Positions 1-64,000 of a stretch of 64,000 nt of DNA are shown here, piece by piece. The stretch covers positions 16,458-80,457 of the forward strand of contig JAFDWK010000020.1 of NCBI GenBank assembly GCA_018268515.1, in the 5' to 3' direction. How positions within the stretch are numbered: the first letter of the stretch is position 1; every line of letters begins with the position of its first letter. The DNA comes from Actinomycetota bacterium (lineage in GTDB: Bacteria; Actinomycetota; Actinomycetes; Actinomycetales; Microbacteriaceae). The notes under the pieces were generated by a model that did not search any database, had not been told where the DNA came from, and worked only from the letters and a program-made list of their open reading frames with translations. Both the position numbers and the translations under genes were made by a program.

Positions 1-1
1 C

Positions 2-610
2 GGCCTCCGCCTGCTGCTGCATGCATGGGGCGTCACCGCGGCGCTCGTGCTCGGCGCGGTGCTGCCCGGCCCCGGCGCGATCCTGCTCGGTGCGGTGCTG
101 CTCTCGCTGACGGGCTGGCTCCTCACGCACGATGTCGCGCGCCGCACGGTCCGGTCCGCGGGCGTCACCCGCTACATGGCGGCATGCATGCTCGGCGGCT
201 ACGTCTGGCTCGCGATCGCCGGCGCGGTGCTGCTGCTCGGATCCCCGGTCTCCCAGCCGCGGTACGACGCTGTGGTGCACGCGGTGTTCCTCGGCTGGAC
301 GTTCTCGATGATCATGGCGCACGCGACGACGATCCTCCCCGCGGTCCTGCACGTCGTGGTGCCGTACCGGCCGGCGTTCTGGGCGCCGGCGGCCCTGCTG
401 CATCTGGCGCTGATCGTGCGGATCTGGTTGGGCGACGGACTCGGCATCACCGCCGCATGGCGCTGGGGAGGCGTGCTGGGTGTCGTCGCGCTGCTGCTGT
501 TCGCACTGACGGCACTGACGAGCGGGCTGCTCGGCGCGAAGAGGACCGCTGCGGAACGCGCGGGCGCGAAGGCGACCGCGACCAGGAGCCCGATCGAGGA
601 GAAGAGATGA
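2..610 (+). CDS. polytopic membrane protein, 5' end cut by the window edge
   Basis: The frame is open from base 2. It has hydrophobic TM-like segments (HAVFLGWTFSMIMAHATTILPAV). The stop TGA at 608-610 overlaps the ATG at 607 of the next gene (ATGA coupling). Confidence 0.5.
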   Translation, partial: GLRLLLHAWGVTAALVLGAVLPGPGAILLGAVLLSLTGWLLTHDVARRTVRSAGVTRYMAACMLGGYVWLAIAGAVLLLGSPVSQPRYDAVVHAVFLGWTFSMIMAHATTILPAVLHVVVPYRPAFWAPAALLHLALIVRIWLGDGLGITAAWRWGGVLGVVALLLFALTALTSGLLGAKRTAAERAGAKATATRSPIEEKR

Positions 611-3324
611 GGATCCCGACCCGACCGGAGCCGCGGGACGGCCGGGCGAGCGAGAAGGCGCCGGCGCGAGGATTCTGGTTCGCGCGCGACGTGCCCACCG
701 CCTTCTGGCTGCTGCTCACGGTGATGGCGGTCCTCGTGCACCGGCAGCTGCCGCAGTCCGGCTGGCTGATGATCCACCTGCTCCTGCTCGGCGCGGTCAC
801 GCACGCGATCCTGGTGTGGAGTCAGTACTTCTCCTTCGCGCTGCTGCGCCGGGCGGTGACGCACACCGACCGCCGGACGCAGAACATCCGCCTCGCGCTG
901 TCGAACGCGGCCGTGGTGCTGGTGCTGCTGGGGGTGCTGCTCGCGATCTGGCCGCTGTCGCTGCTCGGCGCGGCCGCGCTCATCGTCGCCGTCCTCTGGC
1001 ACGCGGCGAGCCTGGTGCGCCGGCTCCGCGGCAGCCTCCCGGGCCGGTTCGGCCGCACAGTCCGGTACTACGTCGCCGCGGCCGGGATGCTGGCGCTCGG
1101 CGCGGCGCTGGGCGGCTGGCTCGCGCGCGGAGACGCCGCACCCCGCCTCGTCCTCGCCCATGCGCTGCTGAACGTGCTCGGCTGGATCGGCCTCGCCGTC
1201 GCCGGCACCGTCGTCACCCTGTGGCCGACGATCCTGCGCACGCGTGCCGACGCCGCCGCCGCCGTGGGGGCCGCACGCGCCCTGCCGCTGCTCGCCGCCG
1301 GCGTGCTCGTCGCCGCAGCCGGCGCGGCCTTCGCGGTGCTCCCGATCATCGCCCTGGGGCTGGCCGGGTATCTTGCCGGGCTCGGCATCATCGGCGTCTC
1401 CCTCGGGCGGGCCGCGCGCAGCAGGCCGCCGAGGTCGTACGCCGCACTGTCCGTCGGGCTCGCGCTGGTCTGGTGGGCGGGATGCGTGGTCGCGCTGATC
1501 GTCGCCCTGCTCGCGGCGAGCGTCGACGGCACCGGCCTCGCGGGCTTCCTGCCGGCGCTCGAGCAGATCGTGCCGTTCCTCGCCGCCGGCTTCGCGGCGC
1601 AGGTGCTGCTCGGGGCGCTCAGCTATCTCGTGCCGGTCGTGCTGGGCGGCGGACCCACGCCGGTGCGGGTCGGCACGTCGTGGTTCGATCGCGCCGGCGT
1701 GCTGCGGGTGACCGTGGCGAACACGGCGCTGGTGGTCTGCGCGCTGCCGGTGTCGAGTCTGACCAGGGTCGCCGCGTCGGTGCTGTACCTGGTGGCGATG
1801 GCGTCGTTCCTGGTCATCATGATGCTCGCGATGCGGGCGCAGCGTCGGGCCAAGGCCGAAGCGGGTGACCCCGCCCGTGCCGCGTCGGCCTCGCCGACTG
1901 TCCGCGGCCCGCGGACCCCGGAGGGGGAGCGGCCGCCCGAAAGCCGCGCGGGGCAGGCCGTGGCGGGGCTGCTCGCGGTGGTGCTCGTCGTCGCGGTCGG
2001 CGCGGCGGTGGATCCGCTCCCGTCCCGTGCGGGCGTCCAGGCGCAGGGCACCGCACAGAGCGACCCGAACGCCCCGGTGAAGACGGTCCAGGTGCACGCC
2101 GCCGACATGCGCTTCACGCCCGACCGGATCGAGGTCCCCGCCGGGACGCGGCTGGTGATCGAGCTCACCAACACCGACAAGGCGCAGGTGCACGACCTCG
2201 TCCTCGCCAACGGCACAGGCGGCACTCGGCTCTCACCCGGACAGTCCGCACGGATCGACGTGGGCGTGATCACGGCGGACGTGGACGGCTGGTGCTCCAT
2301 CATCGGGCATCGGCAGGCGGGGATGACCCTCACTGTCGTCGCGACGGGTGCCGGCGCGTCCGGCGGCGGCCAGGCCGCTCACAGCGGATCCGGATCCGGA
2401 TCCGGATCCGGTGCCGATGCCGGTCGCGGGGCCATGAGTGGCATGAGCGGGATGGGCCAGGCGACGCCGGGACCGGGATTCACCCCGCGCAGCGCGGTGC
2501 TGGATCCGCTGCCGCCCGCCGAGGGGCCCGTCACCCGTCGGGTCACGCTCACCGTGACCGACACGAAGACCGAGGTCGCCCCCGGCGTCGAGCAGACGCT
2601 GTGGACCTACAACGGCACGGCGCCGGGGCCGACCCTGCACGGCCGGGTGGGGGACACCTTCGTGGTCACCCTCGTCAACCACGGCACGATGGGGCACTCC
2701 ATCGACTTCCATGCCGGCTCGCTCGCCCCGGACCGGCCGATGCGCACCATCGCACCGGGGCAGAGCCTGACCTACACGTTCACCGCCACGCGAGCGGGGA
2801 TCTGGGCGTACCACTGCTCGACCATGCCGATGTCGGCGCACATGGCGAACGGCATGATCGGCGCTGTCGTGATCGAACCGCCCGATCTCGCCCCCGTCGA
2901 CCGCAGCTACGTGCTCGTGCAGAGCGAGTTCTACCTCGGAGCGCAAGGCGGCGAGGTCGATGTCGACAAGGTCGACGCAGACACCCCGGATCTGGTCGTG
3001 TTCAACGGCTACGCGAACCAGTACGATCACGCGCCCCTCGTGGCGAAGGTCGGTGAACGCGTGCGGGTGTGGGTGCTCGACGCGGGGCCGAACAGGGCGA
3101 CCGGCTTCCACGTCGTCGGCGGGCAGTTCGACACGGTGTGGGCCGAGGGTGCATTCCTGCTGGACCATTCGCCGAACACCGGCTCACAGGTGCTGGCGCT
3201 CGCGCCGGCGCAGGGAGGGTACGTCGAGCTCGCCTTCCCCGAGGCCGGCGATTACCCGTTCGTCTCGCACTACATGATCGATGCGGAACGGGGCGCGCAT
3301 GGGGTCTTCGCCGTGGCGCCCTGA
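607..3324 (+). CDS. nirK: membrane-anchored copper-containing nitrite reductase (NirK-type multicopper oxidase) with an N-terminal polytopic membrane domain and an extra cupredoxin domain
   Basis: The C-terminal core carries NirK copper-ligand motifs: HSIDFH, YHCSTMPMSAHMANGM, FHVVGGQFD and SHYMIDAERGAHG. The internal cupredoxin-like domain has VHD...WCSIIGHRQAGM. About 430 aa at the N-terminus are TM-rich. I chose ATG 607 over ORF-track start 25 because residues 1-194 of the track ORF are Arg-rich and overlap the better frame-2 ORF. Confidence 0.8.
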   Translation: MRIPTRPEPRDGRASEKAPARGFWFARDVPTAFWLLLTVMAVLVHRQLPQSGWLMIHLLLLGAVTHAILVWSQYFSFALLRRAVTHTDRRTQNIRLALSNAAVVLVLLGVLLAIWPLSLLGAAALIVAVLWHAASLVRRLRGSLPGRFGRTVRYYVAAAGMLALGAALGGWLARGDAAPRLVLAHALLNVLGWIGLAVAGTVVTLWPTILRTRADAAAAVGAARALPLLAAGVLVAAAGAAFAVLPIIALGLAGYLAGLGIIGVSLGRAARSRPPRSYAALSVGLALVWWAGCVVALIVALLAASVDGTGLAGFLPALEQIVPFLAAGFAAQVLLGALSYLVPVVLGGGPTPVRVGTSWFDRAGVLRVTVANTALVVCALPVSSLTRVAASVLYLVAMASFLVIMMLAMRAQRRAKAEAGDPARAASASPTVRGPRTPEGERPPESRAGQAVAGLLAVVLVVAVGAAVDPLPSRAGVQAQGTAQSDPNAPVKTVQVHAADMRFTPDRIEVPAGTRLVIELTNTDKAQVHDLVLANGTGGTRLSPGQSARIDVGVITADVDGWCSIIGHRQAGMTLTVVATGAGASGGGQAAHSGSGSGSGSGADAGRGAMSGMSGMGQATPGPGFTPRSAVLDPLPPAEGPVTRRVTLTVTDTKTEVAPGVEQTLWTYNGTAPGPTLHGRVGDTFVVTLVNHGTMGHSIDFHAGSLAPDRPMRTIAPGQSLTYTFTATRAGIWAYHCSTMPMSAHMANGMIGAVVIEPPDLAPVDRSYVLVQSEFYLGAQGGEVDVDKVDADTPDLVVFNGYANQYDHAPLVAKVGERVRVWVLDAGPNRATGFHVVGGQFDTVWAEGAFLLDHSPNTGSQVLALAPAQGGYVELAFPEAGDYPFVSHYMIDAERGAHGVFAVAP
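2386..2409 (+). repeat. (GGATCC)x4 hexanucleotide microsatellite encoding a (Gly-Ser)4 linker inside nirK
   Basis: Four perfect head-to-tail GGATCC units were read directly; they translate as GSGSGSGS. Confidence 0.95.
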
Positions 3325-3385
3325 TCCGGCGCGTCGATCGTGTCGAGCCGCCCGCGTGCCTGGCGGCGGGCATTAGCGTGGTGAC

Positions 3386-4159: not shown

Positions 4160-4206
4160 GGTGCGCGACAGGCCTGCATCATCGGTGATGCGCGTATGAT
4201 GCGAAC

Positions 4207-4858: not shown

Positions 4859-4947
4859 CACGCACTCGGTGCGAACTGAGGCCGTAGCGCGGCCCTGTCC
4901 GTGCAACCCCGCACGGACAGGGCGATCGCCGTCACTAGACTTGCCTG

Positions 4948-6702: not shown

Positions 6703-6716
6703 GTCGCTGGTCGCCC

Positions 6717-6749
6717 AGGGCCCGGGACGGATCCGTCCGCCCGGGCCCT
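6717..6749 (+). terminator. GC-rich hairpin downstream of proS
   Basis: AGGGCCCGGG...CCCGGGCCCT forms a 10-bp outer stem, with an inner ACGGA/TCCGT pairing. It lies 15 nt after the proS stop. The T-tract is weak. Confidence 0.5.
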
Positions 6750-6857
6750 TGGCGTCCATGTGCGGTCGCGAGGTCGGCGACCCGACGTCCTCCGTGTCAG
6801 CACCCGTTTCCGGTGCACGTCCTTCCGTGGCGCATCCGGGCGCGGGATGATGGCGCC

Positions 6858-8147
6858 ATGAGCAGTTTCCTGCTGACCGCGATGCCGTTCACCGGGCATG
6901 TGGCGCCGATGACCGCGATCGCGGGGGAGCTGGTGCGGCGTGGCCACGACGTGCGGTTCTACACCGGATCCCGGTTCCGCGCCCGGGTCGAGGCGGTCGG
7001 GGCGCGGCTGGTGCCCTGGCGGCAGGCCCCCGATTTCGACGAGACCGACCTCGCCGCGACTTTTCCGCGGCTGATCGGCAAGAAAGGTGTACGGCAGCTC
7101 CTGGTCAACATGGTCGACTGCTTCATCCGCACTGCGCCGGCGCAGGTCGCCGACCTCGTGACCGAGTGGCATCGGGATCCCTGGGATGCGCTCGCGGCGG
7201 ATGAGACCTCGGTCGGCGCGGTGCTGTTCAGCGAGACGATGCACCATCCCTGGAGCACGGTCGCGGTGCTGCCGTTGAACTTGCTCGGGCCCGCGGGCCC
7301 GCCGAGCGGAATGGGCCTGCGCCCCGGCAACACCGCGGTCACGAGGGTGCGGGATGCGGTGCTCCGCGGGCTCGTCCCGGCGCTGTCGCGTCCCCTGGTG
7401 CGCGCGCTCGACGAGGCGGAGCATGCCGTCGGCCTCGAGGCGCGCGGCTGGAGCCTGGACCGGCTGGTGTTCTCGCCGACGCTGATCCTCGCCAGCGGCG
7501 CACCCGCGCTCGACTACGACCGTGCCGATCGTCCGGAGCACGTGCACTTCGTCGGCGAGCTCGCGACCCGTACGAGGGCCACACCGGCGGTGCCACTGCC
7601 GTCATGGTGGGCCGACCTCGATGGCCGCCGGGTGGTGCTGGTCACGCAGGGCACCCTGAACACCGACCCGGAGGACCTGGTCCGCCCCGCGTTGCAGGCC
7701 CTCGACGGACGGGACATGATCGTCGTGGCCACGACCGGTGTGCCCGGCCGCGACGGGCTGTCGTTCCCCGTCCCGGCGAACACGCGCGTCATCGGCATCG
7801 CGCCGTTCGCCGATCTGCTGCCGCGGCTCGACCTCGCGATCACGAACGGCGGCTGGGGTGGCACGCTCGCCACGCTCGCGCAGGGCATCCCGCTGGTGAT
7901 CGCCGGGGGAGACCTGGATAAGCCAGAGGTCGCCGCGCGGGTGGCGTTCACCGGCGCCGGGGTGAACCTGCGCACCGGAACCCCCTCGGCCGGCGCGGTC
8001 GGGGCAGCGGTGGACCGCGTCCTGGGGGAGGGGGGCTTCCGAGATTCCGCCACGCGGGTCGGCTCCGAGTTGCGCGCCCTCGGCGGGGCGGCGCACGCGG
8101 CCGATCTCCTCGAACGAACTGCTCGGGCGTCGGTCAGTCCGTCGTGA
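6858..8147 (+). CDS. MGT-family (UDP-glycosyltransferase, GT1) glycosyltransferase
   Basis: I chose the internal ATG at 6858 (MSSFLLTAMPFTGHVAPM...). The C-terminal nucleotide-sugar motif is TNGGWGGTLATLAQGIPLV. The upstream part of the track ORF overlaps proS and is Arg-rich. Confidence 0.75.
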   Translation: MSSFLLTAMPFTGHVAPMTAIAGELVRRGHDVRFYTGSRFRARVEAVGARLVPWRQAPDFDETDLAATFPRLIGKKGVRQLLVNMVDCFIRTAPAQVADLVTEWHRDPWDALAADETSVGAVLFSETMHHPWSTVAVLPLNLLGPAGPPSGMGLRPGNTAVTRVRDAVLRGLVPALSRPLVRALDEAEHAVGLEARGWSLDRLVFSPTLILASGAPALDYDRADRPEHVHFVGELATRTRATPAVPLPSWWADLDGRRVVLVTQGTLNTDPEDLVRPALQALDGRDMIVVATTGVPGRDGLSFPVPANTRVIGIAPFADLLPRLDLAITNGGWGGTLATLAQGIPLVIAGGDLDKPEVAARVAFTGAGVNLRTGTPSAGAVGAAVDRVLGEGGFRDSATRVGSELRALGGAAHAADLLERTARASVSPS

Positions 8148-8736
8148 ACTCGCACCGCAGGGCGAGCGACGCGTACGACAGGATGTTCGCGCGATACGTG
8201 GCCGCGCCGTGCTCGAGCCCGATCAGCGGATACAGGTCGTAGGCGTCCTCCAGCGCGACGATGTTGCGGGCGATCACGGTGAGCCCGGCGGCCGGGCGGA
8301 ACGCGCCGAGAGCCGCCCCGATCTCGATCGTGGAGCGGTACAGGCTCACCTGGCGCTCCACGATCGACCGGTGCAGCGGTCGGTACTGCGGCTGCTCGCG
8401 CAGCAGCGGGATGCTCTCGTAGGCCATCCGCAGATGGTCGCTGATCTCGTCGGGCACACCCGCCTCGACGAGCTTTGCGAGCCGGCGCACCGGATCCGGT
8501 TCCTGCTCGGCGATCACCCGGCGGTGCTCGTACATCTCCTCCAGCACGCCCTCGACGGTCGCGTACATCAGCTCGTCGAAGCTCGGGAAGTAGTAGAGCA
8601 CGCTGCCGGCGCTCACCGAGGCCTCGGCCGCCACCGCGCGCACGTTGGTGGCAGTCAGCCCGCTGCGGCCGGCGACCCGGCGGGTGGCCGAGATGAGCTC
8701 GGCGCGCCGCGCGCTGTGCTTGTGCGGTGCCGGCAC
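8134..8736 (-). CDS. TetR family transcriptional regulator
   Basis: The N-terminal HTH is RRAELISATRRVAGRSGLTATNVRAVAAEASVSAGSVLYYF. The protein is 200 aa. Confidence 0.85.
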   Translation of the reverse strand: MPAPHKHSARRAELISATRRVAGRSGLTATNVRAVAAEASVSAGSVLYYFPSFDELMYATVEGVLEEMYEHRRVIAEQEPDPVRRLAKLVEAGVPDEISDHLRMAYESIPLLREQPQYRPLHRSIVERQVSLYRSTIEIGAALGAFRPAAGLTVIARNIVALEDAYDLYPLIGLEHGAATYRANILSYASLALRCEFTTD

Positions 8737-8791
8737 GGCGACCCCTTTCCTGCGGACGGCCGGAGTCGTCCACGGATCGTGCGGACCCGGC

Positions 8792-9208
8792 TCAGGACTC
8801 GTCGTCCACGACCACCGTGGTCAGCTCAGCATAGTGCTGGGGATTGCGTACCTTGAGCACGAAGCCGATCACGGCGATCGCGGCGACGGCCTGGGCGAAC
8901 ACGAGCCCCGCGACCCCCACCGAGTACACCGGCAGCGCGAAGTCGAGGAACGGATCCGCGCCGGCGGCGAGCGTGATCACGATGGCGGCGAGCGAGATGA
9001 CGCTCATCACGAGGCTGGCGTGATGCTGGGTCTTGATCTGCGTGCGGGCAAGCCAAGCGGGCAGCAGCCGCTCACGGCCGATCGAGAACAGATAGCGCGT
9101 GCACGCGTTGTGGAAGGCGAGGCGGCGGGCGAGCGCGGTGCCGCCGGTGAGCGCGGGGTCGGCCGGGGCGGTCACCGCGGAATCTACGGGGGAAGGTCGA
9201 GACATCAT
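8792..9208 (-). pseudogene. C-terminal remnant of an APC-family amino acid permease
   Basis: Only about 110 aa resemble the last TM helices of APC transporters (YLFSIGRERLLPAWLART...HHASLVMSVISLAAIV). A full-length APC permease would be about 450-500 aa. The upstream sequence is replaced by a tandem repeat. Confidence 0.55.
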
Positions 9209-9230
9209 CGGCTCCTGGTTCGATCCGCCG

Positions 9231-9370
9231 TGGCGTGCCGTGGCGTGCCGTGGCGTGCCGTGGCGTGCCGTGGCGTGCCGTGGCGTGCCGTGGCGTGCCG
9301 TGGCGTGCCGTGGCGTGCCGTGGCGTGCCGTGCCGTGCCGTGGCGTGGCGTGGCGTGGCGTGGCGTCGGG
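9231..9370. repeat. 10-bp tandem repeat array (TGGCGTGCCG x10 perfect, plus 4 degenerate units)
   Basis: Read directly. There are ten identical units at 9231-9330, followed by TGCCGTGCCG, TGGCGTGGCG x2 and TGGCGTCGGG. Confidence 0.97.
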
Positions 9371-9449
9371 TCGGCGACGGGGCTTGAACAGTGACTCAAG
9401 AGTATTAAGTCGATGCTGTCATGCAGAAATGTAGGATCTGTCCTAGACT

Positions 9450-9467
9450 TCTGAACAATCGTTCAGA
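9450..9467. promoter_or_regulatory. perfect palindrome TCTGAAC-AATC-GTTCAGA in a locally AT-rich stretch (candidate operator)
   Basis: A 7-bp inverted repeat with a 4-bp spacer, read directly. It sits in a ~100-bp low-GC segment (9381-9480) that also holds two shorter palindromes, CTTGA..TCAAG and TAGGA..TCCTA. Confidence 0.35.
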
Positions 9468-9483
9468 GCAGATCGGAGACGTC

Positions 9484-9846
9484 GTGACGTCGCAGCACAG
9501 TTCGCCGCAGCCCGAGGCGCGCGTGCGCGCCCGCGATCTCGGCGTCGCCTTCGACGGCGAGCCCGGCGTGCTGGACGCGATCACCGACGTCCCCGGCCTC
9601 GAGGTGGGCTTCACGACGCTGATCGAGGGGGAAGGCGCCCACGCGGTGCGCAGCGGGGTCACCGCGATCCTGCCGCGGGGCAGCGACGGCGTGGGCGTCG
9701 CCTGCGCGGCGGCCGTGCACTCCTTCAACGGCAACGGCGAGCTGACCGGGCGCAGCTGGATCGACGAGTCCGGATCCCTCGCCCTGCCGATCGCGCTCCC
9801 GCACCACGAGATCCGTGCGGCCGCGGAGCGCATGTCGGTGCGGTGA
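9484..9846 (+). pseudogene. N-terminal remnant of a DmpA/BapA-type (peptidase S58, P1 family) aminopeptidase
   Basis: ARDLGVAFDGEPGVLDAITDVPGLEVGFTTL...VRSGVTAILP...NGNGELTGRSWIDESGSLALPIAL matches the first ~110 aa of the family. The reading frame then ends at about 120 aa, against roughly 350 aa expected. Confidence 0.55.
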
Positions 9847-9883
9847 GGACCGGGCCCGTGCGGGGTCCTGTCAGGATGGGGGC

Positions 9884-10486
9884 ATGCAGACCTCTCCCGG
9901 CGCGTGGCTGAGAGCGCGCCCGTCGCTGACCGGAACCGCACCTGCGCTGCACCCCGCATCCGTGCCGGACGATCCGCTCGCCCTGTTCCTGAACTGGATC
10001 ACCGCGGCGGCGGAGGCCGAGGTGGCAGAGCCGCACGCGGCGACGCTCGCCACGATCGACGCGGACGGGCTGCCGGATGCGCGCACGCTCATCCTCAAGG
10101 ACGTCGACGAGCGCGGCTGGGCGTTCGCCGGAACCCGATCCTCGGCCAAGGGACAGCAGCTGGCGGCGAACCCCCTGGCGGCGCTGAACTTCTGGTGGCA
10201 GCCCGTGCTGCGCGCCGTGCGGGTGCGCGGCAGGGTGCAGGAAGCCACTGCCGCGGAGAGTGCGGCGGATCTGGCCACGCGCTCCCCGTCGGCGCGCGCA
10301 GGCGTGGCGGACGGCGATTGGGTGCTCTGGCGGGTCGTGCCGAGCCGGATCGAGTTCTGGCAGGGGGCGACGGATCGGCGTCACCTCCGCATCATCTACA
10401 CGCGGCGCGCGGACGGCTGGCGCCGCACCTGGCACGGTGACGAAGGCACGGCGCCGATCGGCGCCCGAGAGGAGCGGAACGCATGA
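9884..10486 (+). CDS. pdxH: pyridoxamine 5'-phosphate oxidase family protein
   Basis: I chose ATG 9884. The motifs are ATLATIDADGLPDARTLILKD and the C-terminal IEFWQGATDRRHLRIIY. Confidence 0.7.
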   Translation: MQTSPGAWLRARPSLTGTAPALHPASVPDDPLALFLNWITAAAEAEVAEPHAATLATIDADGLPDARTLILKDVDERGWAFAGTRSSAKGQQLAANPLAALNFWWQPVLRAVRVRGRVQEATAAESAADLATRSPSARAGVADGDWVLWRVVPSRIEFWQGATDRRHLRIIYTRRADGWRRTWHGDEGTAPIGAREERNA

Positions 10487-10923
10487 GCGACTACGAGATC
10501 ACCGAGATCGGCGCACCGGACGAATGGCGCCGGCACCACGGCGGGTTCGATGCGTCGCGCTCGCGCGACGGCCGCCGCGTCGTCGACCACGAACTGGCCA
10601 TGCAGTACATCGGGATGACCGCGAACGCGCTGGAGCCGGGGGAGGAGGCCGGATACTGGCACACCCATTCCCGGATCGAGGAGCTCTACGTGTTCCTCGC
10701 CGGACGCGGGCAGATGGGCGTCGGCGACGAGGTGGTCGAGGTCGGCCCCGGCACCGTGGTCCGTGTGAGGCAGGACGTGCCGCGCACCTGGCGCGCCCTC
10801 CCGGACAGCGCCGGCGAGCTGCGCTGGCTGTGCATCCGCGCCGGCGGCGAGGCGCTGCCGCACCTTCCGGACGACAGCGCGCGCCTGCCGGAACGGCCGA
10901 TGCCGTGGCACGCTGCGGACTGA
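10483..10923 (+). CDS. cupin domain protein
   Basis: It has a GYWHTHSRIEELYVFLAGRG...VVRV cupin-like beta-barrel motif. Its ATGA overlaps the pdxH stop. Confidence 0.6.
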   Translation: MSDYEITEIGAPDEWRRHHGGFDASRSRDGRRVVDHELAMQYIGMTANALEPGEEAGYWHTHSRIEELYVFLAGRGQMGVGDEVVEVGPGTVVRVRQDVPRTWRALPDSAGELRWLCIRAGGEALPHLPDDSARLPERPMPWHAAD

Positions 10924-13353: not shown

Positions 13354-14340
13354 ATGGATATCGATCTCGGATTGCTGCGCACGATCGAGCGGGAGAAGGA
13401 GATCCCCTTCGACGAGCTCATCGCGATCATCGAACAGGCCGTCCTGACCGCCTACGCCAAGCACGACTCGAACGACGGTGTGCTCACCGAGGGCACTCGC
13501 GTCGAGCTCGACCGCAAGACCGGCCACGTGGCCGTCCTCGTGCCGGTCCGCGATGAAGAGGGCGCGATCATCGGCGAGGAGGACTCCACCCCCGACGACT
13601 TCGGCCGCATCGCCGCGTTCGCCGCGAAGCAGGTCATCGGCCAGCGGCTGCGCGACATCGCCGACGACGCCGTGCTCGGCGAGTTCCGCGGCAAGGAGGG
13701 GGACATCGTCGCCGGCGTCATCCAGCAGGGGTCCAACCCGCGGATGATCCACGTCGACCTCGGATCCGTCGAGGCGATCCTGCCGCCGGAGGAGCAGGTC
13801 CCCGGCGAGGAGTACGCGCACGGCAACCGCATCCGCGTGTACGTGACCTCCGTCGCCAAGGGCATGAAGGGCCCGGCGATCACCGTGTCCCGCACGCACC
13901 CCGGGCTCGTTCGCAAGCTGTTCGCGCTCGAGGTGCCGGAGATCGCGGCGGGGCTCGTCGAGATCGTGGCCCTCGCCCGCGAGGCCGGGCACCGCAGCAA
14001 GATCGCGGTGAAGGCGAACGACCCGTCGATCAACGCCAAGGGCGCCTGCATCGGCGAGATGGGCCGACGCGTCCGCGCGGTCACCGAGGAGCTGGCGGGG
14101 GAGAAGATCGACATCGTCGACTACCACCAGGACCTCGCCACGTTCGTCGCTCATGCGCTGTCGCCGGCGAAGGTGACGAGCGCGTTCGTCCTCGACGCGG
14201 GCACCAAGGCCGTGCGCGCGCTCGTGCCCGACTACCAGCTGTCGCTCGCGATCGGCAAGGAGGGGCAGAACGCCCGCCTCGCCGCGAAGCTCACCGGTGC
14301 GAAGATCGACATCCAGCCGGATTCGGTGCTCGACGCGTGA
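13354..14340 (+). CDS. nusA: transcription termination/antitermination factor NusA
   Basis: I chose ATG 13354, preceded by AGGGAGG. The sequence is MDIDLGLLRTIEREKEIPFDELI..., followed by S1 and KH domain blocks. Confidence 0.95.
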   Translation: MDIDLGLLRTIEREKEIPFDELIAIIEQAVLTAYAKHDSNDGVLTEGTRVELDRKTGHVAVLVPVRDEEGAIIGEEDSTPDDFGRIAAFAAKQVIGQRLRDIADDAVLGEFRGKEGDIVAGVIQQGSNPRMIHVDLGSVEAILPPEEQVPGEEYAHGNRIRVYVTSVAKGMKGPAITVSRTHPGLVRKLFALEVPEIAAGLVEIVALAREAGHRSKIAVKANDPSINAKGACIGEMGRRVRAVTEELAGEKIDIVDYHQDLATFVAHALSPAKVTSAFVLDAGTKAVRALVPDYQLSLAIGKEGQNARLAAKLTGAKIDIQPDSVLDA

Positions 14341-18281: not shown

Positions 18282-20492
18282 ATGACGGGGGGCTGCGCGA
18301 CGATGGATGGCGCGACGACGGCGACAGCGCAGGAAGAGACCGCGAGCGACGCGGGCGGCGCACGACGACAGGGATCCGAGGGGCGCCGGATCGGCATCGC
18401 CGATGTCGTTCCGCACGTGCGATCCATCCTCGAGCGTCACTGCGGTGGCGACGCGACCGCGATCGCGCAGATGCTGGCGGCACTGGATCCCGAGCAGCGC
18501 CGAGGGTGGCGGATCCTGCCGGACCCGCTTCCGGCAGTCCCCGCGTTGGCCGCGCACGCCGAGCGGATCCTGCCCGTCGATGCCGATCCGGAACAGGTGC
18601 TGAGTCTCGCCGTGTGCGGCGCCGGATCGGTGCGGGTGCTGGCCGCGATCGCGGGATGCGCGCCCGATCGGATCCCGCAGTCGCCGCTGGCCGGTCTCGT
18701 CGACGTGCGCGGTGGGCGGTTCCGCTTCGTCGACGCGGCTCTGCGTGCGCACGTTCTCGCGGCGGCGACGCCGCAGGAGCGGCTGCGGGCGCACCGCCGG
18801 CTGGTGCCCCTGATCGCCGGGGCCGGAGCCGAGGCCGGAGATGAGGGCGCCGTGGCCTGGCACCGCGCCCGCGGCGCCCTGGCCGGTGACCCTGCCCTGG
18901 TCGAGCCGCTTCTCGGCCGGGCGTGCGACGCCCTGCGGTCGGGCGACGCCGAGCGCGCGTGGCGCGGCGCGGCGGAAGCCGCGGAGCACGCCCGGCCCGG
19001 CACGCCCGCGCACGCCCGGGCTCTGCTGTGCGGCGGACGCGCGGCGCTGGCCGGAGGATGGGTCGCCGACGCCGTGGAGCGCATCGAGCAGGCGCTGCGG
19101 ATCGAGGGCGGGCACCAGGGGGAGGCGACGGCCGCGCTCGTCCTCGCGCACGCCCTGCGCCACGGCTCGGTGCCGGCGCCGGACCAGCTGATGCCCGCCG
19201 CTGCGACCGGCCGAGGGTTCCGGCGTGCGGCGGCGCTGGGCGCGTCGCTCAGTGCGGAGCGCGGCGATCGCGAACGCCGCGCGCAATGGCTGGCCGTAGG
19301 AGCACGGCTCGGCCGGGATCCGGACGACCGCGCGACCCTGCTGGGGTGGTGCGATGCGCTGGCCGGGGATGCGCCGGTGGGCGACGCGGGTACCGGGTCG
19401 GTCGGCGATGCTGGACCGGCCCACCGCGTGGCGCACGCGCTGTGCGCGGGTCTCGACGGTGATCCGGATGCCGGAGTGCGCGCGCTGACCGAGCCGGGCG
19501 CGACCGACGTGGCGGACCCGGTCCTCGGCTTGTACGAGCACAGTCCGCTGCTGCGCGCGCGCCGTGCCGTCGTGGAGGTGATGCTGCATGTCTGGGCGGG
19601 ACGGATCGGCGCCGCATACGAGCTGCTGGCCGCATCGGCGGCGGAGCTTCCCGTGGCCCTGCCGTTCGCAGGCATCGCCGTCGCACTGTCCCGGCGGCTC
19701 GACCTCGCCGTGGACGGCCGCATCGGGACGCTCTCCCGGGAGCTGGCGGCCGGCGTGCCGTGGACGCAGGCGCCCGATGGGTTCGTGGACAGGGCGATCG
19801 ACGCCTACCTGCAGGGACGCAGCGACGAGGCCGCCGTGCACATGGCGCTGTGGGCCGACCGCGGGTGCCCCGGCGAGCTTCTCGGTCTTCCCGGCCTGGA
19901 CGAGATCGGGCCGCTGAGCACGTCGGCCGCTCCCGAGCCTCCGGACGCCGCGGACGCGCGTGCGCTGCGGGAGCGCGTCCGCGCGGCACGCGAGTCATCC
20001 TGGCGCACCGACCTCGACGTGGTGGCGGAGGAGAGCCGAGGCATCCGCTCCGCCTTCGAACGGGCCAGGGTCGAGGCGCTGCTGGGGTCGACCTGCGCGG
20101 CGCGAGGAGATCGAGGACGCGGCGTGCGGCATCTGCGGGCGGCTCGGAGCCTGTTCGACGAGTCCGGGGCGCGGGCGTGGCGGGGCATGGTCGACCGCCG
20201 GCTGCGGATGATGGCGGAGCGACGCCGGCGAGGTGCGGCGGACGACGAGACGCGCGCCGCGCCGCCGTCACTGGAGGTCTGCCGCGCGACGTGGGAGCCC
20301 GTGCTGACCGTGCGTGAGCTCGAGGTCGCGCTGCTCATCGCGGAGGGGCGGACGAACCGCGAGATCGCCGATGCCCTGCACGTGTCCGTGCGGACCGTCG
20401 AGGTGCACGGCGGGCGGATCTTCGCGAAGCTCGATGTGCGCACCCGTCACGAGCTGACCGTGCTCGCGCACCGCACGGACCAGCACCTCTGA
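18282..20492 (+). CDS. large LuxR-family transcriptional regulator with no recognisable Walker A motif
   Basis: The C-terminal HTH is LTVRELEVALLIAEGRTNREIADALHVSVRTVEVHGGRIFAKL. The Ala/Leu-rich repeat region is LAL-like. The start is uncertain (18192, 18282 or 18303). Confidence 0.75.
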   Translation: MTGGCATMDGATTATAQEETASDAGGARRQGSEGRRIGIADVVPHVRSILERHCGGDATAIAQMLAALDPEQRRGWRILPDPLPAVPALAAHAERILPVDADPEQVLSLAVCGAGSVRVLAAIAGCAPDRIPQSPLAGLVDVRGGRFRFVDAALRAHVLAAATPQERLRAHRRLVPLIAGAGAEAGDEGAVAWHRARGALAGDPALVEPLLGRACDALRSGDAERAWRGAAEAAEHARPGTPAHARALLCGGRAALAGGWVADAVERIEQALRIEGGHQGEATAALVLAHALRHGSVPAPDQLMPAAATGRGFRRAAALGASLSAERGDRERRAQWLAVGARLGRDPDDRATLLGWCDALAGDAPVGDAGTGSVGDAGPAHRVAHALCAGLDGDPDAGVRALTEPGATDVADPVLGLYEHSPLLRARRAVVEVMLHVWAGRIGAAYELLAASAAELPVALPFAGIAVALSRRLDLAVDGRIGTLSRELAAGVPWTQAPDGFVDRAIDAYLQGRSDEAAVHMALWADRGCPGELLGLPGLDEIGPLSTSAAPEPPDAADARALRERVRAARESSWRTDLDVVAEESRGIRSAFERARVEALLGSTCAARGDRGRGVRHLRAARSLFDESGARAWRGMVDRRLRMMAERRRRGAADDETRAAPPSLEVCRATWEPVLTVRELEVALLIAEGRTNREIADALHVSVRTVEVHGGRIFAKLDVRTRHELTVLAHRTDQHL

Positions 20493-24330: not shown

Positions 24331-24547
24331 CTCCAAGAGGGCTCGCGTGGCGTAAACTGGCCGCGAACCCGCTGTGACCGACGTGCGCGATGCACGCCCA
24401 CGGGGTTCTCGTCCGCCCGGGTCCGCGAAGCCTGCCGGCAGCCGCCCGTCCGTGGACACCGCGTCGTCGGGATGAGCACTGTCCGGGCGATGGATGTTCG
24501 GAACAGTCGCCGTCCTCTTCGAGACGGCCTCCACGCTCAGGAGGAGC

Positions 24548-26710
24548 ATGCCGACCACGGCGACCGCCACCCGGCGGAAGAAGACGTCGCGCCGAGACGA
24601 GGACGCGCCGCTGATCCCGATCCTCGCGCGAAAGGTCCGCGAGATCGAGGCCAAGGCCCAGCACGGGAAACTCGGGCCCACCAACCGCGTCAAGTTCCAG
24701 GTGATCGCGTTTCTGGTGCGCGAGGAGCGCGCCAGGGTCAAGAGCGACGCGGAGCTCGGCGATTCCGCCCGTGCCGAGCTCCTGAAACGCCTGGACGGCG
24801 TGGCGACGATCCTCGCGAAGACCGCGGCGCGCGACACCTCGCTGATCCAGCTGCTCGAGGCGGATCAGGCGACCAGCCCGGTCGCGAAGCGGATGCGCCG
24901 CGACTGGTTGCTGGAGTCCGGCGCCGAGCTGGCCCCGGAAGAGCTCGTGATCGCCGACGTCGCCCGCGTGCAGCAGGCGCCCGTGGTGCCGGCAGCCCTC
25001 GCGGAGCGCCAGGTCACACCGCCGTCCGTGGAGTCGCGCATGCTCGCGAACCCCTTCCACGCCCCGGATCTCACGCCCCGGGCGGCGGCTACGCCCCGCC
25101 GTCGGCTCGACGGCTGGGAGCTGATGGGGCCGCTGTACAAGGCGTTCGAGTCGGGCGCCGGGGGATCGGCGGCTTCGATGGAGCTGCCGCCGCTGCCCGA
25201 GTACGACCACCTCTCGCCCAAGGGCCTCGAGGTGATGGTGCACCAATCCCGGTTCGTGGAGTCGGTGCGGGCGGGGCACCGGTCGTTCCTGCTCGCCGAC
25301 GAGCCGGGGCTCGGCAAGACCGCGCAGTCGGTGCTCGCCGCCTCCATCGCGAACGCCTATCCGCTGCTGGTGGTCGTGCCGAACGTCGTGAAGATGAACT
25401 GGGCGCGCGAGGTGGAGCGGTGGACCCCGCAGCGCCGCGCCGCGGTGATCCAGGGCGACGGTCAGGACGTCGACGCCTTCGCGGACGTCTTCATCGTGAA
25501 CTACGAGATCCTCGACCGGCACCTGTCCTGGCTCGGCGAGATCGGCCTGCGCGGCATGGTCGTCGACGAGGCGCACTTCATCAAGAACCTCTCCTCGCAG
25601 CGCTCGCAGAACGTGCTCGCCCTCGCGGCCCGGATCCGCGAGCAGTCGCCGGGCGGTCACCCGCTGCTCATGGCGCTCACCGGAACGCCGCTGATCAACG
25701 ACGTCGAGGATTTCGACGCGATCTGGCGGTTCCTCGGCTGGACCAACGGCGAGCGGCCCTCGGCCGAGCTCGCGGACAAGCTCGACGCGACCGGGCTCAC
25801 CCCCGCGGACAAGGCGTTCTACGGCGAGGCCAGGGACGCCGTCATCTCGATGGGCATCGTGCGCCGCAAGAAGAAGGACGTGGCCGCCGACCTGCCCGAC
25901 AAGCTCATCGCCGATCTGCCCGTGCAGCTCGACGACGAGTTCGGCCGCAGCATCCGCCAGGCCGAGGCCGAACTGGGCGCCCGGATGGCGGCGAAGTACC
26001 GCCGGATCATCGAGGCACGCGGCGAGCGCGGTGCCGACCGGTCCCTGAGCCTGTCGAAGGGCGAGATCGACGAGGACATCGTGCGCCTGGTCGCGCACGG
26101 CGAGCTCGAGGAGTCGAAGGCGGCGGGCACCGGCGGGGACAACGTCTTCACCATGGTCCGCAAGATCGGCCAGGCCAAGGCCCTCCTCGCGGCGGACTAC
26201 GCCGCACAGCTGCAGCGCTCGGTCGGCAAGGTGGTGTTCTTCGCCAAGCACGTCGACGTGATGGACCAGGCCGAGGCGCATTTCGCGGCGGCCGGGATCC
26301 GTTCCGTCTCGCTGCGCGGCGACCAGACCGCGATCGCCCGGCAGCAGGCGGTCGACGCGTTCAACGGCGACCCCGAGGTCGGGATCGCCGTCTGCTCGCT
26401 GACCGCGGCGGGCGTCGGCGTCAACCTGCAGACGGCCTCGAACGTGGTGCTGGCCGAGCTCAGCTGGACCGCGGCGGAGCAGACCCAGGCGATCGACCGG
26501 GTGCACCGGATCGGGCAGGACGAGCCGGTCACGGCGTGGCGGATCATCGCCGCGCACACGCTCGACACGAAGATCGCCGAGCTCATCGACCAGAAGCAGT
26601 CCCTCGCCGCGCGCGCTCTCGATGGGGAGGCCGTGGAGGAGGGCGCGAGCGAGTCGGTGCAGCTGGCGGCGCTCATGCACCTGCTGCGCGAGGCTCTCGG
26701 CGGCGATTGA
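24548..26710 (+). CDS. SNF2-family DEAD/DEAH-box helicase
   Basis: The motifs are LADEPGLGKTAQS, VVDEAHFIKN, LTGTPLIND and a helicase-C block QAIDRVHRIGQ. AGGAGG precedes ATG 24548. Confidence 0.85.
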   Translation: MPTTATATRRKKTSRRDEDAPLIPILARKVREIEAKAQHGKLGPTNRVKFQVIAFLVREERARVKSDAELGDSARAELLKRLDGVATILAKTAARDTSLIQLLEADQATSPVAKRMRRDWLLESGAELAPEELVIADVARVQQAPVVPAALAERQVTPPSVESRMLANPFHAPDLTPRAAATPRRRLDGWELMGPLYKAFESGAGGSAASMELPPLPEYDHLSPKGLEVMVHQSRFVESVRAGHRSFLLADEPGLGKTAQSVLAASIANAYPLLVVVPNVVKMNWAREVERWTPQRRAAVIQGDGQDVDAFADVFIVNYEILDRHLSWLGEIGLRGMVVDEAHFIKNLSSQRSQNVLALAARIREQSPGGHPLLMALTGTPLINDVEDFDAIWRFLGWTNGERPSAELADKLDATGLTPADKAFYGEARDAVISMGIVRRKKKDVAADLPDKLIADLPVQLDDEFGRSIRQAEAELGARMAAKYRRIIEARGERGADRSLSLSKGEIDEDIVRLVAHGELEESKAAGTGGDNVFTMVRKIGQAKALLAADYAAQLQRSVGKVVFFAKHVDVMDQAEAHFAAAGIRSVSLRGDQTAIARQQAVDAFNGDPEVGIAVCSLTAAGVGVNLQTASNVVLAELSWTAAEQTQAIDRVHRIGQDEPVTAWRIIAAHTLDTKIAELIDQKQSLAARALDGEAVEEGASESVQLAALMHLLREALGGD

Positions 26711-27988: not shown

Positions 27989-28021
27989 GTGCAGGGCAGG
28001 ATCTCGGATCCTGTCCTGCAC
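27989..28021. terminator. bidirectional hairpin between the convergent genes pfkA and ptrB
   Basis: GTGCAGGGCAGGATC-TCG-GATCCTGTCCTGCAC forms a 15-bp stem with one mismatch. Confidence 0.6.
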
Positions 28022-40728: not shown

Positions 40729-40797
40729 GGAGGATCCGCCGCCCGTCGGTCAGGGCTGCGGATCCTCCGCCCGTCGGTCAGGGCTGCGGATCCTCCG
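40729..40797. repeat. 28-bp tandem duplication containing GGAGGATCCGC / GCGGATCCTCC hairpin arms, between the convergent CMD and MFS genes
   Basis: CGCCCGTCGGTCAGGGCTGCGGATCCTC occurs twice in tandem. The second copy supplies the last codons and stop of the MFS gene. The inverted arms could form a bidirectional terminator. Confidence 0.7.
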
Positions 40798-42064
40798 CGT
40801 CGTACGCGCGGAATCGCGGGCTGAGGCGCACGAGCACCGCGACCAGGCCGATCACGAGCAGTCCGCCCAGCAGAGGCGGGAACCACAGGGCGGTGAGCGA
40901 GGCCAGCACTCCCGCGTAGAGCGCGCCCAGGCGGGGCCCGCCGGCGACCACGATGACGAAGACGCCCTGCAGACGCCCGCGCATGGCGTCGGGCACCGCC
41001 GCCTGCATCATGGTGTTCCGGTAGATCGAGCTGACGTTGTCGGCGGCGCCCGAGAACGCCAGGGCGACGCAGGCGAGCGCGATCAGCAGCAGGTTCGGCG
41101 AGGACGCCGTGGCGCGGCCGGCGGGGAGCATCGCCCCCACGAGCAGGACGACACCGAACAGGGCGATCGTCGTGCCGTAGGCCTGCACGGCCCTGGCGAT
41201 CCCGCGGCCGTGCCAGCGGTAGTGCACGATGCGCCCGGAGAGCAGGCTCGACAGGAACGTGCCGACCGCGACGGATGCGGTGAGCAGGCCGGTGGTGACC
41301 GCGCCGCCGCCCAGGATCACGGTGCCGAGCGCGGGGAAGAGGGCGAGCGGCTGACCGAACGTCATGGCGCAGATGTCGAGGAGGTACTGCATCCGGATGT
41401 TGCCGGCGCGGCGCAGGAAGCGCCAGCCGTCGACGAGGGAGGCGATTCCCGGGCGCACGATCTCGCCCTCCGGCTTGAGCGCCGGCAGCGTCCACAGCCC
41501 GAGGAACATCGAAAGCATCAGGATCACGTCGATCGTGTACGTCCATCCGTAGCCGGTCAGGGCCACGAGGATGCCGGCCAGGGCGGGGCCGGCCATCACC
41601 GTCATGCCGAACGCGACGCCGTTGAGGGCCGAGGCCGGCGCCAGCATCTCGCGGGGGAGCAGTCGCGGGATGATCGCCGTGCGCGTCGCCATCCCGACCG
41701 AGTTCGCGGCGGCGATGATCATGCTGAGCGCGTAGAGCCACCAGATCGTCTCCGCGTGCGTCCAGGTGAGCGTCGCGAGCAGCGCGGTCGCGGCGAACGT
41801 GACGACCGCGGCGATGAGCGCGACCCGTCGTCGGTCGAAGGCGTCGGCGAGCATGCCGCCGTAGAGCCCGGCGAGGATCATCGGCACGAGCCCCGCCACC
41901 GCGATCATCGAGACGGCGAACGTGCTGTGCGTGAGTGCGAACACGTGCAGCATGACGGTGACGACGGTGAGCTGACCGCCGATGCCGCTGAGCGTGGACC
42001 CGATCCACATCCGGGCGAATGCCGGGCTCCGCCGGAACGGGCTCAGATCGATCAGATGGCTCAC
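40778..42064 (-). CDS. MFS transporter
   Basis: A 428-aa protein with about 12 hydrophobic segments and typical MFS loops (GMLADAFDRRR). Confidence 0.85.
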   Translation of the reverse strand: MSHLIDLSPFRRSPAFARMWIGSTLSGIGGQLTVVTVMLHVFALTHSTFAVSMIAVAGLVPMILAGLYGGMLADAFDRRRVALIAAVVTFAATALLATLTWTHAETIWWLYALSMIIAAANSVGMATRTAIIPRLLPREMLAPASALNGVAFGMTVMAGPALAGILVALTGYGWTYTIDVILMLSMFLGLWTLPALKPEGEIVRPGIASLVDGWRFLRRAGNIRMQYLLDICAMTFGQPLALFPALGTVILGGGAVTTGLLTASVAVGTFLSSLLSGRIVHYRWHGRGIARAVQAYGTTIALFGVVLLVGAMLPAGRATASSPNLLLIALACVALAFSGAADNVSSIYRNTMMQAAVPDAMRGRLQGVFVIVVAGGPRLGALYAGVLASLTALWFPPLLGGLLVIGLVAVLVRLSPRFRAYDAEDPQP

Positions 42065-58960: not shown

Positions 58961-58991
58961 GAACAGGATGCCTCTGTGCGCATCCGTCCAT

Positions 58992-59018: not shown

Positions 59019-59041
59019 CTAAACAAAGAAGGAGAGACCTC

Positions 59042-61318: not shown

Positions 61319-61333
61319 CCCTTCGCACGAAAG

Positions 61334-61376
61334 GGCCCGTCTTGTCCACCGAAAGGGGGACAAGACGGGCCTTTTT
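61334..61376 (+). terminator. rho-independent terminator of pnp
   Basis: GGCCCGTCTTGTCC-10 nt-GGACAAGACGGGCC forms a 14-bp perfect stem followed by TTTTT. Confidence 0.9.
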
Positions 61377-61520
61377 CCGTTCCTGTGATCGAAACGTTAC
61401 ACGTTGTTCGCCTCCTGGACGACTCAATGAACGGAACTGTCCGCGGCCTCCCTTACTCTCGAAGGGACGCACCGGGGGGTGCGTCCCAGAACACAACGCA
61501 GCAGACACGGGGGTGATCGC

Positions 61521-62573: not shown

Positions 62574-62656
62574 CCCGACCCGGGGTCGCCGTGTCCGATC
62601 CGTGACATAGGCTGGAAGCATCCCGGCCGCGGAGCCGGAGACGAGGCGAGCGAGTT

Positions 62657-63259: not shown

Positions 63260-63363
63260 TCAGGTCCGGACCCGTTCCCCGTCCGCGACCGGGCCGTCCA
63301 CGACCGTGAACAGCGGATGCGGCGTCGGGAGGGGGATCGCGCGCCAGCGCTCCGACCACAGCC

Positions 63364-63843
63364 TCATCCTTGGACCGTCAGATCCTTGCGATACCAGCGC
63401 GTCGCGTTCGGATTGGCGTTGTAGCGCGGGATCCCGGTGAAGCCGCTGTTGCGGTACAGGTGCCCGGCCGCCTCGAGGGTGTGGTGGGTGTCGAGCACGA
63501 GGGCCCGGGCGCCCCGTCGGCGCGCGCGGCGCTCCAGCTCGTCCAGCAGCAGCCGGCCCCAGCCCCTGCCTCGGGTCTCGGGGCGAAGGAAGACGTGCTT
63601 GATCTCGAACACGTCCTTCTCACCGCCCGGCATCACGACCCGGCGGATCCCGCCGCAGCCGACGATCGCGCCCTCGTCCTCGAGCAGGAGGAAGACGCCG
63701 TCCGGATCCTGGAACGCCGCAGCCGTCGGATAGGCGGGGGAGTAGCCGCCGCCGGGGAACTCCGCCGCGCGCAGCGCGAAGTAGTCGCCGAGCACGGCGT
63801 GGGCGTCGGCGTCCTCGGGGGACGCGATGCGGAACGTGGGCAT
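63364..63843 (-). CDS. GNAT family N-acetyltransferase
   Basis: It has the acetyl-CoA binding block RGRGWGRLLLDELERRARRRGA. I chose ATG 63843. Confidence 0.8.
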   Translation of the reverse strand: MPTFRIASPEDADAHAVLGDYFALRAAEFPGGGYSPAYPTAAAFQDPDGVFLLLEDEGAIVGCGGIRRVVMPGGEKDVFEIKHVFLRPETRGRGWGRLLLDELERRARRRGARALVLDTHHTLEAAGHLYRNSGFTGIPRYNANPNATRWYRKDLTVQG

Positions 63844-63957
63844 GCTCCGACGGTAACCGATGCCGCGGATCCTGCGGGTCCGACGTCTCGGGAGCCTCCG
63901 CGGCCGGCCGCACCGGCGCGCGCCGCGCCGCGTCGGACCCCTGAATAGACTGAGGGC

Positions 63958-64000
63958 ATGACGACGCACGTGGCCCTGGTGGGCGCCTCCGGCAAGCTCG
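63958..64000 (+). CDS. start of an NAD(P)-binding (Rossmann, NmrA/SDR-like) protein, cut by the window edge
   Basis: MTTHVALVGASGKL... has a GxxGxxG-like N-terminus. Only 14 codons are visible. Confidence 0.3.
   Translation, partial: MTTHVALVGASGKL

Follow-up and report, generated by a model that had tools for sequence, protein, structure and literature searches.

GGATCC is a highly iterated palindrome specific to one clade of Microbacterium

The DNA stretch analyzed here (referred to as the window) comprises 64,000 bp of contig JAFDWK010000020.1 from a bacterium of the Microbacteriaceae (assembly GCA_018268515.1). It has a G+C content of 70.95% and 55 called genes, and 85% of it is coding; its genes include proS, nusA, infB, rbfA, truB, ribF, rpsO, and pnp. 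The palindrome GGATCC was found 115 times in these 64 kb by exact counting (one site per 556 bp, 1.8/kb), and the octamer CGGATCCG, every copy of which encloses GGATCC, was found 36 times, whereas base composition predicts 21.4 and 2.7 copies, respectively. A preliminary description of the window had tallied about 115 and about 36 sites by eye against expectations near 20 and near 3, and its tallies were identical to the exact counts. Syntenic regions of 80 Microbacterium species or metagenome-assembled genomes (MAGs; L001 to L080) were fetched via NusA, whose gene (13354-14337, plus strand) served as the anchor and contains one of the sites (13762), so that the analysis covered 64 kb from the window genome and 12-21 kb per relative. 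In this comparison, GGATCC proved to be a highly iterated palindrome specific to a single clade of Microbacterium, which consists of the window genome, Microbacterium sp. 2MCAF23, M. capsulatum, and M. panaciterrae.

The GGATCC sites were distributed across the whole window, 101 of them in coding and 14 in non-coding DNA. They start at positions 239, 611, 2010, 2386, 2392, 2398, 2404, 2502, 4719, 5563, 6032, 6196, 6350, 6729, 6966, 7175, 8492, 8952, 9772, 10949, 11237, 11864, 12020, 12178, 12902, 13762, 15161, 17707, 18372, 18485, 18511, 18565, 18670, 19316, 20958, 21243, 21525, 22227, 23348, 23373, 24303, 25632, 26295, 28006, 28094, 28408, 28785, 28829, 29086, 29406, 29818, 30064, 30198, 31953, 32324, 32584, 33029, 33988, 34171, 34478, 34494, 34751, 35258, 36719, 37400, 38300, 38868, 39847, 39880, 40059, 40732, 40760, 40788, 42096, 42293, 42812, 43193, 44706, 45215, 45475, 45857, 45980, 46365, 47251, 47412, 47760, 47808, 48165, 48623, 49280, 49631, 49889, 50755, 51726, 52290, 52368, 53138, 53268, 54078, 54932, 55644, 56584, 57456, 60087, 60470, 61539, 61551, 62131, 62853, 62951, 63241, 63429, 63645, 63704, and 63867. 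Their spacing was indistinguishable from random (coefficient of variation 0.95), and since the largest gap of 2631 bp also fits random placement, a regular or periodic arrangement was rejected. Coding and non-coding DNA were equally affected, with densities of 1.89 and 1.73 sites per kb compared with 0.33 and 0.35 per kb in sister species.

Within genes, GGATCC was enriched in each of the three codon phases. The phases GGA-TCC, xGG-ATC-Cxx, and xxG-GAT-CCx accounted for 39, 31, and 31 sites, whereas 3.8, 14.1, and 7.6 were expected from synonymous shuffles. The realized fraction of opportunities, defined as all peptide contexts able to encode GGATCC synonymously, was 39/104 for Gly-Ser (4.7% in sister species), 30/52 for [RGW]-Ile-[LPHQR] (18.6%), and 31/63 for x-Asp-Pro (9.5%). 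GGA-TCC was the commonest Gly-Ser dicodon in the window, although the share of GGA among glycine codons was not raised overall; this rare codon was concentrated in the GGATCC context. Frame checks supported the in-frame Gly-Ser pairs reported earlier at 5563, 11237, 13762, 45215, and 47412 as well as the Asp-Pro pairs written as xxG-GAT-CCx at 2010, 2502, and 18485. Four consecutive GGA-TCC units form a hexanucleotide array at 2386-2409 (plus strand), which encodes SGSGSGSG, a (Gly-Ser)4 linker, in a protein with cupredoxin/multicopper-oxidase domains according to Pfam (gene 607-3321). As to a drive on the amino acids themselves, orthologs had only 1.19 times more encodable sites, at most a weak shift at the protein level. 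Large housekeeping genes realized fewer of their opportunities (infB 1/6, pnp 2/8, nusA 1/3, and the gene at 26927-27952 0/3), which would fit opposing codon selection if expression is taken from the type of gene.

The tetranucleotide GATC was itself 4.4-fold more frequent in the window than predicted from base composition (753 vs. 170), and stricter null models were therefore required. Under a maximal-order Markov model, 68.4 GGATCC sites were expected, giving an observed/expected ratio (O/E) of 1.68, which placed GGATCC first among the 4096 hexamers, with no other palindrome coming close; CGATCG, with 118 copies against 115.6 expected, showed no such excess. The ratio of 1.68 is low because the pentamers GGATC and GATCC used by the model are themselves raised by the signal (GATCC 2.1-fold compared with sister species), and it was retained as a conservative bound. 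A table of all xGATCy words showed that the outer bases are coupled, with G..C found 115 times against 68 expected and with GGATCG and CGATCC depleted. The second null model permuted synonymous codons in such a way that neither the encoded proteins nor the codon usage changed. In these shuffles 22.5-25.4 coding GGATCC sites were expected and 38 was the maximum, compared with the 101 observed (z 18-19, O/E 4.0-4.5), and GGATCC again ranked first among the 4096 hexamers; for CGGATCCG, 30 coding copies were observed and about 4 expected. The identical shuffle applied to 24 sister-species loci gave a GGATCC O/E of 0.76-0.88, which shows that this null model is calibrated, and a CGATCG O/E of about 1.5 everywhere, which identifies the excess of CGATCG and GATC as a genus-wide background. 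The base-composition value agreed with the GGATCC density in sister species (0.34/kb pooled). Both null models thus bore out the excess, and together with the enrichment in three phases and in non-coding DNA the shuffles support the view of the preliminary description that the pressure acts on the DNA word and not on the protein. Some other words were two- to five-fold rarer in window coding sequences than in the synonymous shuffles, namely the Shine-Dalgarno-like words GGAGGT (0.38) and CGGAGG (0.51), the CCTGG-containing words TCCTGG (0.43) and CCTGGC (0.43), and GGCCCA (0.18). CCWGG was not depleted under the Markov model, and this scarcity therefore looks like a codon-context effect.

Comparison with the relatives revealed how narrowly the trait is distributed. 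GGATCC densities of 1.5-2.1 per kb were found in the four closest relatives (L001, MAG SZAS-7, JAFDWM01; L002, Microbacterium sp. 2MCAF23, JBFRGY01; L003, M. capsulatum ASV81, JAVFCB01; L004, M. panaciterrae JCM 17839, BAABGP01) and 1.4 per kb in M. resistens (L006). The approximately 75 other species had 0.05-0.9 per kb (pooled 0.34, median about 0.33) with a Markov O/E of 0.96. The contrast between clade and sister species was about five-fold at equal G+C content, codon usage, and GATC/CGATCG excess. Correspondingly, the realized fraction of opportunities was 0.46 in the window, 0.47, 0.44, 0.46, and 0.47 in L001 to L004, and 0.094 (median) elsewhere. With 5.4-fold enrichment in the clade over sister species (z 35), GGATCC was the most clade-enriched hexamer. 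The window genome and L002, L003, and L004 were monophyletic in 40 of 40 bootstraps of a neighbor-joining tree based on nine proteins (2929 columns); MAG SZAS-7, which is enriched like the clade, was left out of this tree. An earlier two-protein neighbor-joining tree with M. panaciterrae outside the clade was overturned by per-gene identities and by the nine-protein tree. M. resistens lies outside the enriched clade, at the distance of a sister species. Intermediate realized fractions were observed outside the clade for M. resistens NBRC 103078 (0.27), Microbacterium sp. SYP-A9085 (L037, 0.25), and a further MAG (L078, 0.28), and may reflect separate gains, remnants of a decaying trait, or sampling noise. 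The trait is common to independent assemblies from different laboratories, which rules out a cloning or linker artefact. Other palindromes were considered as traits of the clade and rejected, since their biases proved to be genus-wide: in the window and in L001 to L080, AGCGCT (Markov O/E 0.5-0.65), GGWCC (0.76-0.82), and CACGTG (0.67-0.87) were depleted and CGATCG was about 1.5-fold enriched over synonymous shuffles.

The positions of the sites turned over although their density was maintained. The window shared 11 GGATCC sites with its closest relative (5.4 expected) and 8 with the next species (6.4 expected), the latter barely above independence. Sharing near independence at a steady density indicates that a continuing force maintains the density while positions turn over. 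At four-fold degenerate sites, L002 to L004 were 65-67% identical to the window and the short L001 locus 61% (n = 561), compared with 56-61% for sister species, which indicates that the clade is old relative to synonymous turnover. One of the main sister-species states replaced by GGATCC was GCATCC (C to G). At four sites it was present in 60/71, 58/71, 44/58, and 36/53 species, respectively, and GGATCC had been formed at 14 of 35 GCATCC opportunities. Accordingly, the most depleted words of the clade relative to sister species, GCATCC (0.54-fold), GGCATCC (0.28-fold), and CGGCATCC (0.21-fold), are the xGC-ATC-C precursors of xGG-ATC-C, and the loss of GCATCC (-1.0/kb) equaled two thirds of the gain of GGATCC (+1.49/kb). 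Replacement of GGCTCC or GGCTCG, by C to A and G to C changes, was likewise among the main types, and occasionally another dipeptide was replaced. The nusA site 13762, for instance, reads GGA-TCC in the window and in 2MCAF23, GGC-TCC or GGT-TCG in the other clade members, and in most other species encodes Gly-Thr (GGC-ACS). Several types of mutation including transversions have thus converged on GGATCC. A lone mutational hotspot is thereby excluded, and the finding speaks against a classical Vsr activity restricted to T:G mismatches.

The preliminary description had laid emphasis on the octamer CGGATCCG. Its count and its enrichment were upheld, as it was the most clade-enriched octamer (11-fold compared with sister species). 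Given its constituent heptamers, however, CGGATCCG carried no extra signal (Markov O/E 0.96) and was rejected as a separate word. Where the flanks are freely variable, C was preferred at position -1 in the clade (38/42 vs. 59/85, p = 0.008) and G tended to occur at position +6 (51/65 vs. 77/116, p = 0.09), with no such preference in sister species. What is targeted is GGATCC, with cGGATCCg mildly preferred, and not a distinct octamer.

At non-coding sites, GGATCC was found in hairpins whose fold energies indicated far greater stability than those of shuffled controls. A terminator-like hairpin directly follows the proS stop codon (6708-6758, plus strand; -44.1 kcal/mol, z -5.5) and carries the GGATCC of position 6729 at its apex. 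Between two convergent genes, a hairpin at 27989-28021 (plus strand; -25 kcal/mol, z -6.1) has 15-nt arms that are 93% complementary and end in GGATC and GATCC, with the GGATCC at 28006 opening the 3' arm. A 28-bp tandem duplication at 40729-40798 (plus strand; -56.2 kcal/mol, z -4.3) contains three GGATCC sites (40732, 40760, and 40788) in direct and inverted repeats, and adjacent copies form a strong hairpin by mutual base pairing, with two-copy pairing at 40729-40768. The repeated unit is GGATCCkCCGCCCGTCGGTCAGGGCTGC, and this hairpin, too, lies between convergent genes. The repeat overlaps the 3' end and stop-codon region of a minus-strand transporter-like gene (40781-42064). The intergenic hairpins reported previously were therefore confirmed for 6729, 28006, 40732, and 40760, all of them non-coding and part of strong hairpins, but not for 40788, which still belongs to the minus-strand gene, close to its 3' end.

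Three further regions of the window were observed in the course of this analysis. Between rbfA and truB, positions 18303-20489 encode a protein of 729 aa whose C-terminal domain is a LuxR/GerE helix-turn-helix, and six GGATCC sites lie there. This protein evolves very fast, with 80, 60, 63, and 43% identity to its counterparts in L002, L003, L004, and L005, compared with 81-97% for neighboring proteins. The block at 6813-10920, which contains a gene for an EryCIII-like glycosyltransferase and several small open reading frames with counterparts in none or in only one to five species of the 80 syntenic regions, is probably a lineage-specific insertion; its GGATCC density is about 1.2 per kb all the same. 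Finally, a SNF2-family helicase with SNF2-related, Helicase_C, and ResIII-like domains is encoded at 24494-26707, downstream of ribF; a connection with the GGATCC signal is not apparent.

A closely similar signature is found in bacteriophages. In mycobacteriophages of subcluster B3, GATC and GGATCC show a four-fold excess across the genome, for which the published work offers no explanation (PMC4841201). In the B3 phage Pipefish (DQ398049), 107 GGATCC sites were counted in 69 kb (Markov expectation 67.4) together with 24 copies of CGGATCCG and 122 of CGATCG; all three phases were enriched (34/137, 33/50, and 31/90 realized opportunities), giving an overall realized fraction of 0.35. Phage Rosebush of subcluster B2 (AY129334, 1-50000) had eight GGATCC sites in 50 kb and a realized fraction of 0.05. 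The B3 phages thus resemble the window in the word itself, in near-identical statistics, in the use of all three phases, in having sister subclusters that are not enriched, and in being unexplained in the literature. They differ in that theirs is a phage genome isolated on M. smegmatis and not a chromosome, and in the lower realized fraction (0.35 vs. 0.46). The counts of other palindromes in Pipefish and the window were also similar (GGATCC 107/115, CGATCG 122/118, GTCGAC 78/82, TGATCA 27/19), and it is a possibility that the B3 phages evolved in a host with a GGATCC signature rather than in M. smegmatis. A B3-specific module of a ParB-like and a PAPS-reductase-like protein was considered as the driver. 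It has a counterpart with 48% identity in the Arthrobacter phage Salgado (KU160664, 1-50000), and this candidate was rejected since Salgado possesses the module, yet contains no GGATCC at all, compared with 16.7 sites expected by base composition. The avoidance in Salgado marks GGATCC as a word relevant to restriction in actinobacterial hosts. Rosebush contained a single CGATCG in 50 kb, and this avoidance, like that of GGATCC in Salgado, presumably serves anti-restriction; the left end of the Rosebush genome carries 7-deazaguanine-type genes (queuine tRNA-ribosyltransferase, QueC-like, and GTP cyclohydrolase I).

Among known iterated words, the closest counterpart is, as the preliminary description had proposed, the highly iterated palindrome HIP1 (GCGATCGC; Robinson) of cyanobacteria, along with the alternative HIP words of this group. 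HIP1 and GGATCC are both G+C-rich palindromes with a GATC core, lineage-specific and outliers among all words. GGATCC ranked first of 4096 hexamers by the Markov model, by the shuffles, and in the comparison of the clade with sister species. Both words occur in all frames and in non-coding DNA, turn over at a maintained density, and show a palindromic flank extension, and the density of about 1800 GGATCC sites per Mb lies within the range of HIP1 (300-2700 per Mb; PMC4390886). However, the word is a different one, a hexamer with a weak octamer preference, it occurs in a different phylum, and it shows no periodicity. The enrichment is about five-fold, whereas that of HIP1 is 55- to 228-fold (Elhai 2015, PMC4390886) or 15- to 300-fold (Xu et al. 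2018, PMC5861425), and the alternative HIP word GGCGCC reaches about 15-fold; the observed/expected ratios of tens to hundreds are not attained by GGATCC. GGATCC is thus a HIP-like word in Actinomycetota, and the B3 mycobacteriophages are enriched in the very same word. As regards other classes of signals, GGATCC is over-represented in the window and not under-represented as an avoided restriction site would be, and as a perfect palindrome it can have neither the single orientation nor the strand skew of uptake and Chi signals. No description of enriched GGATCC in Microbacterium emerged from a full-text literature search. In Sulfolobus acidocaldarius, adenine methylation of GGATCC/AGATCC was detected by single-molecule real-time sequencing, and the authors rejected a role in another defense system (PMC5809426).

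Taken together, these results demonstrate a clade-specific, persistent, and frame-independent, weak directional force on the double-stranded word GGATCC. The odds ratio of realized versus unrealized sites between the clade and sister species was about 8, which would correspond to a scaled per-site advantage S of about 2, on the order of codon-usage selection or biased gene conversion. The palindromic word and its symmetric flank preference suggest recognition by a symmetric enzyme of double-stranded DNA. The explanation that we favor, tentatively and with less than even confidence, is built on analogy: the ancestor of the clade may have acquired a GGATCC-specific DNA methyltransferase that became coupled to a process depending on mark density or to heteroduplex correction. 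We prefer it because HIP words and methyltransferases are correlated in cyanobacteria (PMC4390886). The methyltransferase, either an orphan enzyme or part of a restriction-modification system, might have come to serve a methyl-directed process that needs marks denser than the approximately one per 3 kb provided by chance; alternatively, a site-recognizing nuclease could correct heteroduplexes towards its cognate word, as in Elhai's model for HIP. By either route the sites would gain a small transmission advantage. A process imposed by the host would explain the signature of the B3 mycobacteriophages as well. That the ancestor acquired a host-encoded, GGATCC-recognizing repair or strand-marking system which writes its own site into all replicating DNA, chromosome and phage alike, we consider quite improbable. 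As a methyl-directed or cognate-strand-favoring partner, such a system could possibly act together with actinobacterial mismatch repair, which is of the NucS type and independent of MutS/MutL.

Several observations weigh against the acquisition of a methyltransferase. Restriction-modification systems normally lead to avoidance of their sites, not to enrichment. Neither a Pfam analysis of the ten largest or unannotated window proteins nor a motif scan of the window found a gene for a methyltransferase, a restriction enzyme, Vsr, or a MutH-like protein, and no methyltransferase was found in the annotation of Pipefish. With R.BamHI (checked against PDB entry 1BAM) and M.BamHI (from a Bacillus locus) as queries, tblastn detected no homologs of the BamHI restriction and modification enzymes in the window and the 80 loci (1.5 Mb of relatives); database searches returned at least 120 homologs for each query, the matches listed being of Firmicutes type. 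Moreover, the random spacing bears no sign of selection for regular marks, and the enrichment of about five-fold is an order of magnitude or more (10-50 times) weaker than that of HIP1.

Selection for the sites of an abundant symmetric DNA-binding protein, either nucleoid-associated or chromosome-organizing and acquired or retuned in the ancestor, would require no DNA modification and agrees with the palindrome and its symmetric flank preference, with the frame-independent density, and with the single phylogenetic origin of the trait. We regard this explanation as unlikely, because the sites are randomly spaced with no positional preference, no candidate gene was seen, and the enrichment in B3 phages would be left unexplained; moreover, we know of no actinobacterial nucleoid protein with specificity for GGATCC. 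To the same low degree of probability, GGATCC might be a self-recognition or recombination signal comparable to Chi or to the DNA uptake sequences and uptake signal sequences (DUS/USS), spreading through attenuation of a host exonuclease or through biased uptake or recombination, as a molecular drive in which fragments with the word are retained more often and which the phages of such hosts mimic. An over-representation of about five-fold in all phases and a density of about 1.8 sites per kb resemble the statistics of Chi and DUS/USS, which likewise occur about once per kb and in all frames, under a weak drive; DUS/USS, like GGATCC here, are sometimes recruited into terminator-like hairpins, and the equal signature of phage Pipefish points in the same direction. 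In contrast, to our knowledge all Chi and uptake sequences are non-palindromic words of 8-12 nt tied to competence machinery or to RecBCD/AddAB, Chi is strand-skewed, and we are not aware of natural competence in Microbacterium. For HIP1 itself, a recent preprint makes a link to transformation efficiency (bioRxiv 10.1101/2024.09.10.611283), which would favor a signal of this kind.

Very-short-patch repair, named as a driver in the preliminary description, is disfavored and in our estimate very unlikely. In its classical form, a 5-methylcytosine methyltransferase acting at GGATCC would be accompanied by a Vsr enzyme converting T:G mismatches to C:G, as with Dcm/Vsr at CCWGG in E. coli, also a palindrome whose methylation site is enriched by repair bias. 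Among the mechanisms known to us that over-represent a methylation site, it alone has been established by experiment. However, this repair acts on T:G mismatches only, whereas the dominant precursors (GCATCC, GGCTCC, and GGCTCG) differ from GGATCC by transversions; the T-containing neighbors expected to be depleted were not (GGATCT/AGATCC 1.25-fold and GGATTC/GAATCC 0.85-fold compared with sister species), and five-fold enrichment exceeds that of CCWGG in E. coli. A compositional by-product (of codon usage or of dinucleotide and GATC bias at 71% G+C) or a single context-dependent mutational hotspot, which the GATC excess, the equal frequency of CGATCG, and the modest Markov ratio might seem to favor, has a negligible probability, being refuted by sister species of the same composition that hold GGATCC at the base-composition level and countered by the shuffle z of about 18, by the equally enriched non-coding DNA, and by gains through several types of mutation.

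HIP1 and other iterated palindromes still lack an agreed mechanism three decades after they became known, and a small clade with clean sister controls makes their origin directly testable. In the species concerned, the signature has practical effects on BamHI-based cloning, genome-signature binning, and codon-optimization tables. The match with the B3 phages suggests that any DNA residing in the host cell may be subject to the force, in which case the signature could be of use as a host-range marker for phages. If the sites were indeed written by a repair or strand-marking system, this would be the first mechanistic handle on iterated palindromes and might bear on strand choice in actinobacterial mismatch repair.

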